A stretch of DNA of 63,878 nucleotides, filler included. It is 9 parts of 9 records of this genome, joined end to end, with 100 filler letters (N's around TTAATTAATTAA, not from the genome) between each part and the next. Parts side by side here need not be neighbours in the genome. Positions count along the whole stretch, not along the records: positions 14,224 to 22,556 come from SRR31147125_80799; 8 more parts are not named here. The stretch is one strand, 5' to 3'. The notes below the pieces were generated by a model. It had not been told where the DNA came from. It worked only from the letters and a program-made list of their open reading frames with translations, and ran no database searches. Below are positions 8,234 to 55,598 of this stretch, piece by piece (position 1 is the stretch's first letter; each line of letters starts with the position of its first letter). Made by a program: the position numbers and the translations under genes.

Positions 8234-8333
8234 NNNNNNNNNNNNNNNNNNNNNNNNNNNNNNNNNNNNNNNNNNNNTTAATTAATTAANNNNNNNNNNN
8301 NNNNNNNNNNNNNNNNNNNNNNNNNNNNNNNNN
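8234..8333. other. Artificial contig spacer (N-run, TTAATTAATTAA, N-run). Identical spacers at 14124-14223, 22557-22656, 28141-28240, 37969-38068, 45340-45439, 51622-51721 and 58476-58575
   Basis: Eight identical 100-nt linkers carrying a six-frame stop cassette. Base composition and gene content change abruptly at each one. Confidence 0.98.
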
Positions 8334-14123: not shown

Positions 14124-14223
14124 NNNNNNNNNNNNNNNNNNNNNNNNNNNNNNNNNNNNNNNNNNNNTTAATTAATTAANNNNNNNNNNNNNNNNNNNNN
14201 NNNNNNNNNNNNNNNNNNNNNNN

Positions 14224-15881
14224 TTTTCCCCCGAAATATTATAAATCACCAGTTCAATCTTGCTGTCAGCTGACAGCTGATAACTGATAGCTGTTTGGGG
14301 ATTGAATGGGTTGGGGTAGTTCTGTTCCAAAGTGTATTCATCAGGGATTATGTCCTTTATTTCCACTTCTTCCCTGATAAAGCTCCAAATATTCGACCAC
14401 TCGCTCTCCACTGAACGATTCAAAGATTTCACGCGCCAATAATATCTGATGCTTTCCGCAATGTTCCTTGCAATGAAGATCGTGTCGGTAATACTTTTAT
14501 CTTTTAACTCAACACTGAACAAGCTGTCCTTTGCGATCTGGATCTTGTATGAGGTGGCATTTTCGCATGAACTCCAAATTAAATCACAGGTATCGACACT
14601 TGTGGAATATGCATCTTCCGGTGAAAGCAGTAGGGGTACATTGGGTATTTGGGTATATTGTGCGTAATGCTGACTGACAATATTCTCGGCCAATTTGTCT
14701 CTAACGGCAAAATCTCTCAGTTGACCGAATGAATTTGCCCAATCGATATCCGATGCCATTTGATTTCCCCATAGGAAAGTACCTTTCACAAGATCATTAT
14801 AGCTTGAATTTACCTTAAAGAACGCTTCATGAATATTTGATTGCGTCTCTTCTCCGTCATCAAGTCCGTTCTGGTTGGCATCTTCCATGAATTTGTTTTC
14901 AAATTCCCTGTTCGCCGGTTCATGCGGAGATCCGACAGCATCCACATAGCCGAATTCGAGGAAATAGATCGGTTTACCAGGATTGTTTTGTTGAAGAGGG
15001 ACAAGATAGCTATTGAAGATGCCATTCCAACTTTGCGTTAATCGCTCAAGACTCATAACTGTGTCCGGCATGCTGGGGGTTAAAGGAAAATAGGCGCTGA
15101 TCCCAATAGCATCGAGATCCATATCTTTCCACAGACTGTCCAATTGAAAAAAACCTGCATCGGTCAGGGCGCCGTATTCCATATCGTAGGTCAAGGTGCC
15201 GTCGTAAATCTGCCGAACAGAATCAACCATGGCAGCTAAATGATCCAAATAATTATTCGGCCAGTATCCACCGCTTCGGGTCCGGAACAAACGATTGGTT
15301 TCTGTTCCCAGCGAATACATCGCCACGCCTTCTTGCTCGCAAATATTCGCGTAATACATGGCTTGATCGGTGTAAGTCTCAAAAAATCTTCTAACAAAGC
15401 TTTCATGATCCGGATGTTCCGGCGCCCAGGGCCAGTAGTTAATCGAGATATTGGGATCTTCAATATGCATTTTGGGATCACCCAGCTGCCAACGGGAAAC
15501 GGGATGAATGGCATGCGCGGCTTCTTCGGCTTCAAAGGCAAGGGTCAAATAGACATTGAAATGATTCGCATTAAATTCCCGTATCACATTTATCAAATCA
15601 CTATCATTGAAAGTGGGAATACCAACACCCGAATACACCCGTTCAACCGTACTGTCCATGCTGTCGCTGATATGCAAAGCTACAGAAATGCCGATCCAGT
15701 TGGCATTTAATTTATCGAGATAATTAAAATATTCTTTAGGTGGGTCTTGTATCGAGAAAGTGTTCCGGCCCCAGTTTCCGCCAATGTGAATAGCGCGGAA
15801 GAATGAGGTATCAAGCTCATTAGCATTGCTCTGAGCGAATATCAATAAAAGGATCACCACAATATACTTGCGGTTGAACAT
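14224..15881 (-). CDS. Secreted GH113-like TIM-barrel glycoside hydrolase with FN3-like and FlgD-Ig/T9SS-like C-terminal domains (3' truncated)
   Basis: Signal peptide; SLGTE, IGISAYFPL and FLEFGY motifs; YYWRVKS FN3-like segment; LEQNYPNPFNP C-terminal domain. Confidence 0.65.
14262..14293. repeat. In-frame 7-nt-period repeat (5 units) containing a 16-bp palindrome
   Basis: GCTG or ACTG at 14262, 14269, 14276, 14283 and 14290; GCTGTCAGCTGACAGC at 14262-14277. Confidence 0.7.
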
Positions 15882-15950
15882 TTGTCTTTATCTCCAATTG
15901 ATTTATAATAAGTTATATCTGTGTAGAGTCTATATCAAGGGAAAATTTTA

Positions 15951-16024
15951 GTTTAGAGGTTTAGCAGTTTAGGGGTTTAGCAGTTTAGGAGCCTTCGGCT
16001 CTGTTTAGAAGTTTAAGGGTTTAG
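15951..16024. repeat. 8-nt-period GTTTAGnn array (5+3 units, split by a GAGCC-TTC-GGCTC hairpin), overlapping the 3' end of the four-helix-bundle gene
   Basis: GTTTAG at 15951, 15959, 15967, 15975, 15983, 16003, 16011 (GTTTAA) and 16019. Confidence 0.92.
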
Positions 16025-16385
16025 TTTTTGTAAGTTGTGCTCTTCTTAAGTTTGAAAGTTTTCTTGAAATTTCATCAATTTCGTTTCTTAATTTCTTATA
16101 TGTTTCATTGCTAATTAAAGATCTTTCATTTGATACAATGATTAGGTTAAGACATTCCATCAAGCTTCCGTAGGCAATATTGGTATATTTCGCTTTATCT
16201 TTCGCAGTTATACGTCCAGAACCTTCTGCAATATTATTAGATACTGATAAAGCAGCTCTTTGTAATTGATCAATAATACCTTTTCGTTCTTTATATGGAA
16301 AATTATCAGTAATCTTATAAATATGCTTAGCAAATTCTTTAGATATTTTCCATACGTCCAGCTTTTCAAAAGAATAAATCTTCAT
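16005..16385 (-). CDS. Four-helix-bundle protein (23S rRNA IVP / TIGR02436 family, bAvd-like fold)
   Basis: SFEKLDVW...IYKITDNFP...DQLQRAALSVSNNIAEGSGR...IAYGSLME family signature; GAGGAGG RBS. Confidence 0.93.
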   Translation of the reverse strand: MKIYSFEKLDVWKISKEFAKHIYKITDNFPYKERKGIIDQLQRAALSVSNNIAEGSGRITAKDKAKYTNIAYGSLMECLNLIIVSNERSLISNETYKKLRNEIDEISRKLSNLRRAQLTKTKPLNF

Positions 16386-16408
16386 TTCGTCCTCCTCAAT
16401 TAATTATT

Positions 16409-16493
16409 CTAAACGTCTAAACCCCTAAACAGCGCAGCGCTAAACTCTTGAACAGCGCAGCGTCTAAACTCCTAAACTTATAAACGTTTAACC
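16409..16493. repeat. 8-nt-period CTAAACnn array with two AGCGCAGCG inserts; reverse complement of the 15951-16024 array
   Basis: CTAAAC at 16409, 16417, 16425, 16440, 16464 and 16472; degenerate units at 16448 and 16480. Confidence 0.92.
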
Positions 16494-16694
16494 AGTATTT
16501 CAAACGCTCCAATTATTCTTGTGATCCCCATCACTTAATTATATCCTTTCCTTAAATAATTTTATATATTGTATCAGCAACAATCTTGCGACATATTGGC
16601 AAAAGGTAATGAAAGCCGTCATAGTTTTCCGGCTATAATGGAAGACTTGGGGTTTTGCCGTTTGCGGTTTAAAAACAAAAAATGAGAATTCATT

Positions 16695-18533
16695 ATGTGT
16701 GGAATTGTAGGTTACATTGGAAAAAAAGAGGCATACCCTATCCTTATTAACGGACTTCAACGATTGGAATACAGAGGTTACGACAGTGCCGGAGTCTCTA
16801 TTATCAATAATTCTTTAAAATTGTACAAAACAAAAGGGAAGGTCTCGGATCTGAAAGATCATGTCAAAGGTAAAGATATATCAGGTACGACAGGTATTGC
16901 TCATACAAGATGGGCGACCCATGGTGAGCCTAATGACACAAATGCTCATCCTCATTACTCACCTTCAGGTAGAATGGCTTTGGTTCATAATGGGATCATA
17001 GAAAATTACAATACTCTGAAAAAGGAATTGATCAAACGAGGGTATGAGTTTAAAAGCCGGACGGACACAGAAGTTTTAATGTATTTGATCGAAGATATCA
17101 AGATAAATGAAAAGGTAAATACGGTCAAAGCATTGCAGTTAGCACTTGGGCAAGTTGTGGGAGCCTATGCCATTGTCCTGATCTGTGAAGACGAACCCGG
17201 TATGTTGATCGCAGCGAAAAAAGACAGTCCCCTGGCGGTCGGTATAGGTGATAATGATTTCTATATCGCTTCAGATGCTACCCCGATCATAGAATATACA
17301 CGGGATGTCATTTATTTAAATGATGAAGAGATCGCCATTTTAAAACCCGGAGAGGATATTAAGATCTTCAACATCATAGATCAGCTCCAAACGCCCTACA
17401 TCCATAAACTTGAAATAAATTTAAATAGTCTGGAAAAAGGTGGATTCCCACATTTCATGTTGAAAGAGATTTTTGAGCAACCAAGATCAATACGAGATAG
17501 CATGCGTGGAAGGATATCATCTGAATTAGGTATAGTAAAACTTGGTGGAATGGAAAGCCATAAGTTAGAATTGATCAGCGCCAGACGTATCATCATGCTG
17601 GCCTGTGGAACCAGTTGGCATGCCTGCCTGGTAGGTGAATACTTATTGGAAAACCTGACAAGAATCCCCGTAGAGGTTGAATATGCCTCGGAATTCAGGT
17701 ACCGTGATCCGATCATTGATAGTGATGATGTTGTGATCGCTGTTTCTCAATCCGGTGAAACTGCAGATACCATCGCGGCCGTCAATTTGGCGAAGAAGAG
17801 AGGTGCAACCGTATTGGGGATATGCAACGTTGTAGGATCGACACTTGCACGGATCACCGATGCCGGATCATTTACACACGCGGGTCCAGAGATCGGTGTT
17901 GCATCAACAAAAGCCTTTACGGCACAGGTTACCATTTTGATGTTAATAGCCTTAATGATCGCCAAAGAAAAAGAAACTATCTCAGAATCCCGTTTCAATG
18001 AACTTGTAACAGAAATGGAAAATATTCATCTCAAAGTCGAAGAAACATTAAAGTCCAATGATCAAATAAAAAAGTTGTCAAAAAAATACATGAATTCCCG
18101 AAACGCGCTTTATCTTGGAAGGGGAGTAAATTATCCGGTTGCGATGGAAGGTGCGCTTAAGCTGAAGGAAATATCGTATATTCATGCAGAAGGTTACCCC
18201 GCTGCTGAAATGAAGCATGGTCCCATTGCTTTGATTGATGAAGCTATGCCCGTGGTAGTGATCGCAACACAATGCGAGACATATGAAAAGATCATTACGA
18301 ATATTCAGGAAGTAAAAGCCAGGAAGGGTAAAGTTATTGCCATTGTAACAAAGGGCGACGAGCAAGTTCATCAAATGACCAATCATATGATCGAAATTCC
18401 GGAGATCGATGAATTGCTGGTTCCTTTGCTTTCTACCATACCTCTTCAACTTCTATCTTATCATATTGCAGTCATGAGAGGATGCAATGTTGATCAACCG
18501 CGAAATTTAGCAAAATCAGTCACTGTGGAATAA
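16695..18533 (+). CDS. glmS: Glutamine--fructose-6-phosphate transaminase (isomerizing)
   Basis: MCGIVG, LEYRGYDSAG, HTRWATHG, SQSGETADT, EGALKLKEISYIHAEG, PRNLAKSVTVE. Confidence 0.99.
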   Translation: MCGIVGYIGKKEAYPILINGLQRLEYRGYDSAGVSIINNSLKLYKTKGKVSDLKDHVKGKDISGTTGIAHTRWATHGEPNDTNAHPHYSPSGRMALVHNGIIENYNTLKKELIKRGYEFKSRTDTEVLMYLIEDIKINEKVNTVKALQLALGQVVGAYAIVLICEDEPGMLIAAKKDSPLAVGIGDNDFYIASDATPIIEYTRDVIYLNDEEIAILKPGEDIKIFNIIDQLQTPYIHKLEINLNSLEKGGFPHFMLKEIFEQPRSIRDSMRGRISSELGIVKLGGMESHKLELISARRIIMLACGTSWHACLVGEYLLENLTRIPVEVEYASEFRYRDPIIDSDDVVIAVSQSGETADTIAAVNLAKKRGATVLGICNVVGSTLARITDAGSFTHAGPEIGVASTKAFTAQVTILMLIALMIAKEKETISESRFNELVTEMENIHLKVEETLKSNDQIKKLSKKYMNSRNALYLGRGVNYPVAMEGALKLKEISYIHAEGYPAAEMKHGPIALIDEAMPVVVIATQCETYEKIITNIQEVKARKGKVIAIVTKGDEQVHQMTNHMIEIPEIDELLVPLLSTIPLQLLSYHIAVMRGCNVDQPRNLAKSVTVE

Positions 18534-18634: not shown

Positions 18635-19432
18635 ATGAAAAAGATCGCAATATTGGGTGCAGGAAACATTGGGCAAGCTATCTACCGGGGGCTCGTCGGT
18701 TCAGGTGGCATAAAGGCTGAAGATGTAATTTTAAGCAATACAAATATCAATCTTATCAAGCCATTCGAAAAAGAAGCTTGCTTGATCACGGATGATAATA
18801 CAGAAGCGTTAGCTTTTGCCGATATACTGATCATATCTGTGGAACCACAACAGGTCAACAAATTGTTGGAGCAGATCAAACCGGCACTTAATGTTAAAAG
18901 ACATTCTATTATTTCCATAGTTTCCGGTGTCTCCATCGACCAGATACTTGATAAATTGGAAGTTGAACTTCCGGTTTTCAGGGCAATGCCCAATACGGCG
19001 ATCTCCATAGGGGAGTCTATGACTGCGCTTGCCTGTCGTAGTAAAGACCGGGAATTGTTGCCCGAAGTTGAGAAACTGTTTTCTCATCTGGGAGAGACAA
19101 TCTACCTGAAAGAAGATCTTATTACATCCGCCACCGCTTTGACCGCATGCGGGATCGCATTTTTTATGAGAGCGATCAGAGCAGCGGTTCAGGGTGGTAT
19201 CGAAATAGGTTTGCATGCAGAAGACGCCCAAAAAATGACAGCTCAAACAGCCAAAGGAGCTGCAAAACTACTGCAGGAAAGCGGACATCATCCCGAGGCA
19301 GAGGTTGATCGTGTTACGACCCCTATGGGTGTGACCATTTCAGGTCTGAACCAAATGGAACATGTCGGCTTTTCATCAGCTATGATCAAGGGAATTGTCA
19401 CCGCCTGGGAAAAAGCAAATAAACTTTATTAG
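18635..19432 (+). CDS. proC: Pyrroline-5-carboxylate reductase
   Basis: ILGAGNIG, FRAMPNTA, AQTAKGAAKLL, VTTPMGVTISG. Confidence 0.95.
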   Translation: MKKIAILGAGNIGQAIYRGLVGSGGIKAEDVILSNTNINLIKPFEKEACLITDDNTEALAFADILIISVEPQQVNKLLEQIKPALNVKRHSIISIVSGVSIDQILDKLEVELPVFRAMPNTAISIGESMTALACRSKDRELLPEVEKLFSHLGETIYLKEDLITSATALTACGIAFFMRAIRAAVQGGIEIGLHAEDAQKMTAQTAKGAAKLLQESGHHPEAEVDRVTTPMGVTISGLNQMEHVGFSSAMIKGIVTAWEKANKLY

Positions 19433-19500
19433 TGACCAGAAGCCAGTGACCAGAAACCAGTGACCAGTTACCAGTGACCAGAAACCAGTGACCAGTGAAC
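19431..19500. repeat. Ten-unit 7-nt tandem array AG(T/A)(G/A/T)ACC, beginning within the proC stop codon
   Basis: agtgacc agaagcc agtgacc agaaacc agtgacc agttacc agtgacc agaaacc agtgacc agtgaac. Confidence 0.95.
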
Positions 19501-22556: not shown

Positions 22557-22656
22557 NNNNNNNNNNNNNNNNNNNNNNNNNNNNNNNNNNNNNNNNNNNN
22601 TTAATTAATTAANNNNNNNNNNNNNNNNNNNNNNNNNNNNNNNNNNNNNNNNNNNN

Positions 22657-53127: not shown

Positions 53128-55598
53128 ATGAAGTCATATTTATTAATTATCACACTATTTCTGACCAGTTGGGCTGTAATTGCTCAGCAAGTTGATACTC
53201 CAGCTAGTCAGCGAGAAGGGAAAATAACTGCTAATTGGTCAGATCGGGCATTAATTAATAACGGTGATTCAAAGCCAGGTGGACAGTACTTGCTTTGGTA
53301 TCAGAAGCCTGCAAAAGTATGGGAGGAGGCATTGCCTATTGGAAATGGATCACTTGGAGCTATGGTTTTTGGAGGAGTAGCCGATGAACGCATACAGCTA
53401 AATGAAAGCACGCTGTGGGATGGTTATCCGATGGATCCCAATGATCCTTCTTCCTTGGAATATTTGCCGGAGGTTCAACGATTGTTGTTCGAAGGTAAGA
53501 ATAATGAGGCCGTAAAGCTGGCAGAGCAGCATATGATGGGACGTCCGCGTGGGGTGAAACCTTTTCAATCATTGGGAGAACTTTGGTTTGATACACCAAT
53601 TATGGAGGCTTCTGATTATGTGCGTAGCCTGGATTTATCAACTGCTATCGTAACTACAAAGTTTAAAGCAGATGGCGTAAGTTATTTGCGTGAGGTTTTT
53701 ATATCACCAGTTGATCAGGTTTTAGTGGTTCATCTCTCCGTTGAAGGAAAAGGCGATATTAACTTCAATCTAACAATGAAACGGCAAAAGGATGCTGTAT
53801 GTAAGTCAATTTCTAATGATGCAAATTCATTGCTTTTAAAAGGACAAATTGATTGTAAAGATAAAACAGGAAAACCAAGAGGATTAAGTTTTGCCGCACA
53901 AGTTAAAGCTATTGCCAAAGGGGGTAAAACTGAAAATGATAATGGTATTTTGAAAGTATCTGGAGCGAAAGAAGTGACTTTGCTTTTAAGTGCTGCTACC
54001 AATTATCCGGGGTTGGCAAATCTTGATAAAGGTGGACCAGACTATTCTATTGATCCGGTTGCGATCTGTGCTCAAACAATTAAGAATGCAGAGTCAAAGA
54101 GTTATAAGCGATTGAAAAAGGCACATATTATAGAACATCAACGTTTATTTAATCGCGTTGACTTGCAGCTTGGAGAAGTTTCTCCTGAAATTCTGTCTTT
54201 GCCTACGGATAAACGTCTGGAGTTAGCAAAACAAACGATGATACCGGATAATAGTTTGGTTGAAACGTTTTTCCAGTTTGGTCGCTATTTGTTAATTTCA
54301 AGCTCTCGTCCTGGAACAATGCCTGCTAATTTACAAGGAATATGGGCGTGGAAGATGAATCCTCCTGGAACGCAGATTATCATACAAATATTAATTTTCA
54401 GATGAATTATTGGCCAGCTGAGATCACCAATTTATCAGAGTTGCATATGCCACTTTTTGATTTAGCAGATGCATTGGTTGAGCCTGGTTCAAAAACGGCT
54501 AAAATACTCTACGGTGCCAATGGCTGGGTCGTTCATCATTTAACTGATCCATGGGGATACACCACTCCTGCTGATGGACCACAAGGAATTTGGCCGGTAG
54601 GTGCAGCATGGTTGGCTCAACATCCTTGGGAACATTACGCTTATACGGGCGATGAGTCATTCTTGAAAGAGCGAGCTTATCCGTTAATGAAAGGCGCTGC
54701 TGAATTCATTCTTGACTTTTTAATTGAGGCTCCAGAAGGTACAGCCTGTCCCGGAAAACTAGTTACGAATCCATCCTATTCTCCAGAAAATGCATTTTTT
54801 CTACCCAATGGAGAAACTTCTGTGTTTACTTATGGGGCAACAATGGATATAGAAATCATTTATGATTTGTTGACTCATTGTATAGAAGCATGTGATATTT
54901 TAGATTTAGATAAGGACTTTAGGGAACAATGTGAGGAAACATTAAATAAATTACCTCCAATTCGAATCAGTAAAAAAACCGGACGGATTATGGAATGGGC
55001 AGAAGATTACAAAGAAGTAGATCCTCATCATCGGCATACTTCGCATTTGTTTGGTCTGTATCCTGGAAATCAGATTACTACATTAGGAACTCCGGCGTTG
55101 GCTGAGGCGGCTCGTAAAACGCTTGTTGCCCGTGGTGATGATGGGACCGGTTGGGGCTTAGCATGGAAAATAAACATGTGGAATCGCTTGCAGGATGGTG
55201 ACCATGCTTATAAACTGCTTTCGGTATTATTGGCTTCTAAAACATTACCAAACTTGTTTGACAACCACCCTCCATTTCAGATTGATGGTAATTTTGGAGC
55301 TACAGCAGCTATTGCCGAAATGATGCTCCAAAGCCAATCTCGTAACGATGATGGAAGTTACAACATGCAATTGTTACCTTCATTACCAACAAATTTGTCA
55401 AGTGGATCAGTAAAAGGATTGTGTGCCCGGGGGGGATTTATCATTGATTTGGATTGGGAAAACGGAGAGGTAAGCAAGGTGAAAATTGTATCAGAAAATG
55501 GAGGATTTTTGCATGTTTCTGATGGAAAAAATCAGTTTTATTCTGTAACCCAAAAAGGAGAAGTTACAATATTGGATCATTCACTAAATAAAAAATAA
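53128..55598 (+). CDS. GH95 alpha-L-fucosidase-like (frameshift near 54365)
   Basis: [71 protein letters not shown]. Confidence 0.93.

Follow-up and report, generated by a model that had tools for sequence, protein, structure and literature searches.

The window analysed here is a 63.9-kb chain of contigs joined by N's, and its contig at 14224-22556 holds the element in question, a small gene of the IVP family (PF05635/TIGR02436) enclosed between two short-period repeat arrays that are reverse complements of each other. Gene and arrays together are called the cassette below, and the arrays its 5' and 3' arms. The nine pieces of the window are set apart by paired 44-N runs 12 bases apart (8234-8333, 14124-14223, 22557-22656 and five further), so genes on opposite sides of a joint are no real neighbours. 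On its own contig, the cassette occupies a divergent intergenic region with a GH113-like gene on one side and glmS on the other. Its parts, in the order of the transcript, are the following.

16464-16493, minus strand: outer block of the upstream (5') arm, with GUUUAG twice and degenerate GUUUAU and GUUAAA
16431-16463, minus strand: interruption of the 5' arm, with two CGCUGCGCUG copies flanking a GUUUAG and a degenerate unit; the period here is 23 nt, and a local hairpin is predicted
16409-16430, minus strand: inner 5'-arm block of three GUUUAGnn units, which pair with the 3' arm in predicted folds
16390-16397, minus strand: Shine-Dalgarno-like GAGGAGGA, read from the sequence, its 3' end 4 nt ahead of the ATG (GAGGAGGAcgaaATG)
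16005-16385, minus strand: IVP gene, 126 aa, basic, four-helix-bundle family, PF05635 and TIGR02436
16003-16024, minus strand: inner block of three units in the downstream (3') arm, one of them UUAAAC, overlapping the last codons and the stop of the IVP open reading frame (ORF)
15990-16000, minus strand: local hairpin breaking the 3' arm, sense GAGCC-GAA-GGCUC (plus strand AGCC-TTCG-GCT), a predicted local stem read from the sequence
15951-15988, minus strand: outer block of the 3' arm, five CUAAACnn sense-strand units, paired with leader units in the minimum free energy (MFE) fold and in the arm duplex

The 126-aa ORF matches PF05635 with E 1.6e-34 (118.8 bits vs a cut-off of 33.8; residues 7-111 aligned with profile positions 1-105 of 106), its sole Pfam match, and TIGR02436 with E 1.1e-31 (109.3 bits vs a cut-off of 24). 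The protein carries NNIAEG, a form of the central N-I/L-A/V-E-G motif present in 78 of 92 collected family members, and has a pI of 9.77; the family median is 9.18, with values above 8 in 75 of the 92. Its closest solved relative is PDB 2gsc (XCC0516; E 1.2e-17), deposited with five chains, and homology to this structure suggests a homopentameric four-helix-bundle assembly. Xanthomonas S23p is cited as a homopentamer in PMC4990558. The start context 'ggaggacgaaATG' is common to many paralogous cassettes in related genomes.

No rRNA or any other Rfam family was matched at the gathering threshold across the window, and a Pfam scan of 52 ORFs returned neither a reverse transcriptase nor a transposase, which extends to the whole window what the preliminary description had stated for the contig. 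A template/variable repeat pair of a diversity-generating retroelement (DGR) is not present in the window. Several other identities were considered and rejected. A sub-threshold match to snR77 within 15800-16700 (23.2 bits vs 50, E 0.81) was taken as chance, and PADLOC models, which would have pointed to anti-phage defence, gave 0 families at E up to 0.01. A CRISPR array is excluded by the 8-nt period and 2-nt spacers, CRISPR repeats being ~23-50 nt long with unique spacers of like length. An identity as DGR Avd, the basic pentamer that binds both nucleic acid and the DGR reverse transcriptase, is likewise rejected, since the protein reaches 21.8 bits against a cut-off of 80 (NF033474, E 1.7e-4) with neither a reverse transcriptase among the 52 ORFs nor a template/variable repeat pair; Avd is a distant homologue of the same fold.

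On the plus strand, GTTTAG starts at 15951, 15959, 15967, 15975 and 15983 in the outer 3' block, i.e. with an 8-nt period, and the inner 3' block consists of GTTTAG at 16003, GTTTAA at 16011 and GTTTAG at 16019. These three inner units encode the C-terminal residues and the stop codon of the IVP ORF. In the upstream array, CTAAAC starts at 16409, 16417, 16425, 16440, 16464 and 16472, degenerate units are found at 16448, 16480 and 16488, and two CAGCGCAGCG inserts lie inside the array (plus strand). The initial observation of a 126-aa gene between reverse-complementary CTAAACnn and GTTTAGnn arrays was borne out by a pattern search, in which GTTTAGNNGTTTAG with no more than one mismatch gave 10 matches, all within the two blocks, vs 0.19 expected and a maximum of 2 in any of 100 shuffles. 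The bare hexamers occur outside the two blocks twice each in 63.9 kb.

When the minus strand of 15930-16510 (581 nt) is folded, the leader pairs with the trailer at an MFE of -131.7 kcal/mol, compared with -106.5 +/- 6.0 kcal/mol for shuffled sequences (z -4.2; 0 of 100 shuffles equal it). The gain from arm-arm pairing is -29.4 kcal/mol vs -13.5 +/- 4.6 for shuffles, none of 200 reaching the observed value, and 43 intermolecular pairs are formed. The complementary termini around the ORF thus form a long but imperfect predicted stem. It had also been supposed that the exactly five units of the outer 3' block correspond to a pentamer. Array copy numbers across the family range from ~2 to 15 (medians 4.6 and 4.0), so a five-unit block is unremarkable, and this idea has been dropped.

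The recurrence of inverted flanking arrays was studied at homologous loci, 80 of them gathered from genomes and 80 from metagenomes. The 200 nt upstream of each gene were compared with the reverse complement of the stretch spanning the last 30 nt of the ORF and the 200 nt after it, and a locus was counted as passing at z>4 and with a score above all 30 shuffles. Inverted complementarity was significant in 45 of the 80 loci of the genome set (79 homologues and the window) and direct similarity in 16 of the 80, while 42 of the 80 were above the 95th percentile of mismatched upstream/downstream pairs. The metagenome replicate gave a similar picture: the test is passed by 35 of 65 usable loci, and 34 of the 65 lie above the percentile for mismatched pairs. 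As controls, 12 of 298 non-IVP genes pass in 400 kb of the array-rich relative G004, and 1 of 43 genes in the window, namely the IVP gene itself. The test is conservative, as 1 of 3 IVP genes in the 400-kb G004 sample passes though all three have visible arms. The expected enrichment of complementary periodic arrays at homologue flanks is therefore found in both sets, and it is almost certain that the gene with its inverted arrays is a real conserved cassette architecture.

Carriers of such loci belong to Bacteroidota, Neomarinimicrobiota, Omnitrophota, Planctomycetota, Patescibacteria, Verrucomicrobiota, Nitrospirota, Acidobacteriota and other phyla, and the best metagenome match to the window protein is 64% identical. 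Strains of Ferruginibacter, Tenacibaculum, Winogradskyella and Flavobacterium are among the carriers, and Bacteroides thetaiotaomicron is the sole control genome in which the family occurs. In a literature search that covered sources outside subscription journals, no published account of repeat arrays flanking PF05635/TIGR02436 genes outside rRNA was found. The '23S rRNA IVP' is named among domains linked to CRISPR arrays in a figure legend of PMC10910872, and our guess is that this link reflects flanking short repeats.

Tandem Repeats Finder (TRF) detected arrays with a period of 6-9 nt upstream in 43 and downstream in 52 of 81 loci. They are distributed by period as follows.

Period 6 nt: 1 upstream array, 1 downstream
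Period 7 nt: 25 upstream arrays, 31 downstream
Period 8 nt: 12 upstream arrays, 14 downstream
Period 9 nt: 5 upstream arrays, 6 downstream

The commonest period is 7 nt, and an autocorrelation test gave results similar to those of TRF. A period of 8 nt characterizes the subgroup of the window cassette, whose members are Marinimicrobia-like and Bacteroidota relatives and whose units are GTTTA(G/A/T). In 16 of the 52 loci having a downstream array, it overlaps the end of the ORF by 6 nt or more. The arms have a strong, strand-specific polarity, the upstream one being richer in G than in C in 44 of 48 and 31 of 39 arm alignments (75 of 87 in total).

Repeat units differ between paralogs of one genome. 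PF05635 matches number 16, 11, 16 and 9 in the related genomes G001-G004 (1.5-2.2 Mb), and 0 to 20 across 41 relatives. In G001-G004 each paralog has its own unit, always accompanied by a complementary downstream partner; the units in related genomes include GTGACGCG, GTTGAAnn, GTTTAAnn, GTAGGTA, GCTGAGAA, GTAGTCA, GTCGAGnn, GATAAGAG, CGATAAA and TCGATnnn. Six PF05635 genes are crowded in ~30 kb of one G002 contig (G002:C12:9395-38654), with a different unit at each of the loci inspected (L094, L099, L104, L109). For 84 cassettes, pairs were scored for a common repeated arm 6-mer, with the following result.

Protein identity <40%: 101 of 2850 pairs share a repeated 6-mer
Protein identity 40-50%: 66 of 273 pairs
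Protein identity 50-60%: 60 of 225 pairs
Protein identity at least 60%: 52 of 80 pairs
Same-genome paralogs, all identities: 5 of 58 pairs

The correlation between unit sharing and protein identity is not equalled in any of 500 permutations. Within a genome, the best IVP pair is 66% identical, and most such pairs have different arms. At an orthologous site, recognized by the same downstream gene in L001, L003 and L156, the arms are GTTTAG/CTAAAC in L156 and GTTTAA/TTAAAC in L001; this difference is present in both arms and is, therefore, a matched change. The repeat unit goes with the protein lineage, or cassette, rather than with the genome. The covariation of the arms anticipated in the preliminary description is thus seen in units that vary by lineage and paralog and yet remain complementary, and its further idea, a protein that may read periodic repeats, agrees indirectly with the conservation of the core, the variability of the spacers and the dependence of units on lineage.

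Arrays of the same kind also occur away from the genes. Triple units of the GTTTAG type gave 35 matches in G004 vs 4 for the reversed control, and 63 vs 1 in Ferruginibacter G005; most of them are not near PF05635 genes, and several are gene-less hairpins. A 400-kb sample of G004 contains 62 arrays of period 6-9, belonging to many unit families, and 51 of these are in the non-coding 12%. Solo unit families that match paralog arms in the same or sister genomes are TCGATnn, CCATAA, GTTGAA, GTTGAG, GTAGGTA and GTAAGAC-like. Solo arrays have the repeats alone in common, not any flanking element sequence, and show no orientation bias (18 C-rich vs 13 G-rich on the sense strand). GTTGAGnn/GTTTAGnn arrays of ~300 nt were noticed at G024:C31:28888-29197 and other G024 sites, and composite tracts in which three units (TCGATTAC, TCTAAAC and AATTGTC) abut in ~80 nt at L144 5097-5178 (G004:C10) and L128 (G004:C176).

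Tandem arrays unconnected with any gene are familiar from cyanobacteria, whose short tandemly repeated repetitive (STRR) sequences are intergenic 7-nt tandem arrays of several families with no known function; they have reportedly been used as fingerprinting markers. The arrays described here resemble them as intergenic short-unit arrays and are hosted by Marinimicrobia-like bacteria and Bacteroidota. A published link between STRR and PF05635/TIGR02436 genes was not found in the literature search. The arrays at IVP genes might likewise be independent genome-wide intergenic repeats, among which IVP genes merely sit or are tolerated. The abundance of arrays in the non-coding DNA of G004, their many unit families and the unbiased orientation of the solo ones agree with this, as does the proC 3' end, where window and relative have arrays built of different units. 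In the window, a gene-less array of ~ten 7-nt units (AGTGACC / AGAAACC) runs from the proC stop codon (19431-19498); in L081, the syntenic locus of G004, the array at the proC 3' end (~1510-1575) is of the TAAGAC type, around a small hairpin. Independent repeats leave unexplained, however, both the inverted same-unit arrays around IVP genes and the link between unit and protein lineage across phyla, and IVP genes show the inverted-flank signal ~14 times as often as the other genes of the array-rich genome. We consider this explanation very unlikely.

The history of the window site could be followed in L081 (G004), the only syntenic relative found in a search with the GH113-like protein (GH113-like proteins 62% identical). 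L081 holds a remnant of the cassette that consists of a shortened 5' arm, the ribosome-binding site (RBS) with ATG, then the last ~25 codons and the outer three CTAAAC units, and it is without the small hairpin of the window 3' arm (15990-16000). Its far-side neighbour is proC, glmS being missing between the remnant and proC. Since a decayed cassette stands at the orthologous site, the window cassette is older than the split of the lineages. The cassette is dispensable and decays through internal deletion with the arms retained. An empty site at this locus was not found in the same synteny search, which yielded this one relative with its decayed copy, and nothing points to a recent insertion.

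These data bear on the possibility that the cassette is, or formerly was, a mobile element, with arrays that act as terminal inverted repeats or homology 'landing pads' while recombination or some enzyme moves the cassettes; gene-less arrays and hairpins would then be left-over copies or unoccupied targets, standing to the cassettes as REPINs do to RAYT genes. Gene-less hairpins of the same unit do exist, in L114 (G004) and at G005:C1:130219-130305, C7:36949-37009 and C31:2302-2408. The internal-deletion relic at the window site, the up to 20 copies in related small genomes and the six copies within 30 kb on one G002 contig also suit a mobile origin, and one G004 array adjoins a possible N-terminal IVP gene fragment (E 0.3). 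Against this, that fragment is the only gene remnant at ~48 solo arrays, the IVP protein has no nuclease or recombinase domain, and no near-identical copies were seen in one genome, where even the best pair is at 66% and arms mostly differ. Moreover, the same site is occupied across genera, no empty counterpart of the window locus was found, and the solo arrays share repeats, not element flanks. A mobile origin is, in our opinion, unlikely. The earlier proposal of a recently mobile non-autonomous unit, in particular, is not sustained, given the decayed copy at the same site in L081 and the divergent within-genome paralogs with different arms.

The comparison with REP (repetitive extragenic palindromic) elements and their RAYT (REP-associated tyrosine transposase) genes is instructive on both sides. 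As in the window cassette, a small gene is flanked by an inverted short repeat, and in relatives the repeats are also gene-less and partly form hairpin doublets; a RAYT-like Y1 transposase gene with a heptamer array is present in the same relative genome, G004. By contrast, the window protein is a four-helix bundle without an HUH/Y1 domain, the repeats are 7-9-nt tandem arrays rather than single palindromes, each IVP paralog has its own unit, and there is no sign of mobilisation. The G004 gene just mentioned, which we read as RAYT-like, is an IS200-like Y1 transposase gene (PF01797, E 2.6e-25; L142 7946-8620, G004:C8) between REP-like GGGTTTTAACCCGG palindromes, with a (TACAGAT)x5 heptamer array adjoining. 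On the same contig, at L142 18420-19110, a 99-aa GIY-YIG nuclease gene is located between two direct copies of a ~90-nt hairpin-containing element, with CRP-like palindromes upstream.

Among known systems, the window cassette may work most like the ORF-bearing intervening sequences (IVS) of 23S rRNA. The IVS of Coxiella burnetii (helix 45) and Leptospira encode proteins of the same S23p/PF05635 family and have the ORF looped in a stem of complementary termini, with a similar overall size of ~430-540 nt. In the Coxiella IVS, the terminal inverted repeats pair as a 28-bp stem and excision is by RNase III, as described in PMC4990558. The window cassette differs in lying outside rRNA, between the GH113-like gene and glmS and not in helix 25 or 45, which define the rRNA elements, and in having arms of 8-nt-unit arrays with mismatched spacers, whereas the IVS stem is near-perfect. 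Furthermore, the window ORF has a strong RBS and looks intact, while the Coxiella ORF is reported to be decaying and unexpressed.

A second analogy is offered by TRAP, with its (G/U)AG repeats, and HutP, with UAG repeats, ring-shaped attenuation proteins that read periodic short RNA motifs. The likeness would consist in a small oligomer, a conserved core with a variable spacer, a constant leader period and from a few to about a dozen units. There is no relation in sequence or fold, and the IVP cassette adds a complementary array after the gene.

Putting these observations together, we tentatively favour the explanation that the window carries a long-resident, self-contained cassette with cognate arrays that pair around the ORF and are bound by its protein; as a whole, this is possible but somewhat doubtful. 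The repeat unit, with its 6-nt core, 1-2-nt variable spacer and fixed period, would be what the encoded basic oligomer recognizes as its cognate element. On one transcript, the arms would zip into an imperfect, register-tolerant long-range stem around RBS and ORF, as in 23S rRNA IVS, and the protein on the arrays, together with ribosomes entering the inner stem, would tune protein output. Scattered genomic copies of the unit would be additional targets or relics. Pairing of the arms in RNA is evenly balanced between likely and unlikely, and recognition of its own unit by the protein, suggested by the units' agreement with protein lineage, falls just short of that. It is somewhat unlikely that all three steps of the mechanism hold together. 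By analogy with the rRNA elements, the stem might also be processed by a nuclease, RNase III or another.

A number of results weigh against the cassette explanation just given. About 45% of all IVP loci fail the flank-complementarity test, and shared descent, not selection, may explain part of both the polarity and the unit-protein link. Pairing in RNA would be expected to leave its mark on the arm mismatches, yet G·U is not above A·C among them (65 vs 63 and 48 vs 59; 113 vs 122 in total), a test that has little power at core positions. Most arm mismatches are transversions at spacer positions, so the 'stem' amounts to 6-bp helices in a row, set apart by regular internal loops, and the data are accounted for equally well by complementarity of the DNA. 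The leader-trailer pairing put forward in the preliminary description is, therefore, upheld as a predicted fold and gains nothing from G·U counts. Several paralogs (L097 and L107) have a promoter-like region and a CRP-type palindrome between 5' arm and gene, and a transcript of their own from such a promoter would be without the 5' arm.

The distribution of arrays presents further difficulties. The 51 intergenic arrays in 400 kb of G004 compare with 3 intact IVP genes, a ~17-fold difference, and arrays so much more numerous than the genes are not solely cassette arms. GTTTAG-type arrays remain at ~20 G004 sites though the GTTTAG-type gene of this genome at the orthologous site is deleted. Across the 41 relatives, the number of arrays is not in proportion to the number of genes (in G024, 304 matches with 5 genes; in G036 and G037, 0 matches with 9 and 8 genes), a comparison confounded by unit type and phylogeny. 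Occurrence of arrays genome-wide regardless of the gene had been named at the outset as an argument against a cassette; they do lie mostly elsewhere, but their enrichment and matching at IVP genes persist.

The fold and the G·U counts also concern a simpler possibility, in which the cassette is purely an IVS-like RNA device and the protein has nothing to do with the repeats. The arms would let RNase III excise the cassette from read-through transcripts, or keep it compact and harmless, and tandem arms would arise by slippage and arm-to-arm correction, a periodic arm being able to pair in many registers. Complementarity is indeed maintained through unit change, and the predicted stem is significantly stable. 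Cassettes are often placed between co-directional genes of an operon, for example, between a gene ending in '...YYDEQYGG' and a MKGIILAGGSGTRLYP gene in Chitinophagaceae. The Riemerella capsule locus, with an IVP gene between wbpP and ugd according to Table 3 of PMC13688083, is another operon-type placement, and PMC4990558 gives RNase III excision as proven for the rRNA version. However, the missing G·U excess speaks against RNA stems as the sole purpose of the arms, and regularly mismatched spacers weaken the helix. Selection for a stem alone needs neither unit conservation at 40-60% protein identity nor distinct units in paralogs, and the same unit families are often met as solo arrays without a pairing partner. 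A device of RNA alone is accordingly given a low probability.

Transcription of the window cassette was considered next to these alternatives. Its 5' arm comes to within 11 nt of the RBS, which places any promoter outside the arm. A scan confined to the sigma-70 type gave no convincing minus-strand promoter upstream of the 5' arm, and a scan for intrinsic terminators found none. Two further features border the cassette.

16520-16535, no strand: TGTGA-N6-TCACA palindrome with 1 mismatch, lying immediately beyond the 5' arm and ~135 nt ahead of the ATG
15882-15950, minus strand: spacer from the cassette to the GH113-like gene, near-identical to L081 2650-2716 despite the 62% protein identity of the GH113-like proteins

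The palindrome, which we take to be of the CRP/FNR-type consensus, is the sole match with no more than one mismatch in the 63.9-kb window. Such sites are located ~100-157 nt upstream of 8 of 24 IVP genes in Marinimicrobia-like relatives (L085, L092, L095, L096, L097, L106, L107 and L112), and 7 matches unlinked to an IVP gene were counted in 47 kb of intergenic DNA of a relative, corresponding to a ~7-fold enrichment at IVP genes. The site at 16520-16535 is possibly part of the cassette's own regulated promoter or a shared regulator site. On the other side, a promoter-like site at 15932-15905 on the minus strand (a consensus match only) lies in the conserved spacer, and the conservation of 15882-15950 suggests that it is the promoter and leader (5' untranslated region) of the GH113-like gene. 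Elsewhere in the window, at 53128-55595, a GH95-type glycosidase is split into two overlapping ORFs, which cover catalytic-domain profile positions 1-87 and then 85-408; the probable cause is a frameshift or a fault of the assembly.

The PF05635/TIGR02436 family, which is very large, took its name some thirty years ago from ORFs in rRNA intervening sequences, and to our knowledge it has no known function. With the present data, the family gains an anatomy outside rRNA, a gene plus inverted arrays with paralog-specific units, a fixed polarity and matching gene-less arrays, and rRNA intervening sequences would then represent a special case, one landing place of a far broader class of cassettes. 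For annotation, it is of practical importance that short-period arrays beside IVP genes can pass for other repeat classes. In the widest interpretation, PF05635 proteins would be a large, diversified set of oligomers that read short tandem repeats; every paralog would have a 7-9-nt unit of its own, with the scattered copies of that unit as targets. We regard this as rather unlikely. If true, 10-20 paralogs would make 10-20 orthogonal protein-repeat pairs in one organism, and both the orphan IVP family and the STRR-like intergenic repeats of many bacteria would be accounted for. A 'hypothetical protein' thereby becomes a system with sharp questions: whether it binds its own repeat, whether the arms pair and are cut, and whether the scattered arrays are targets or relics.

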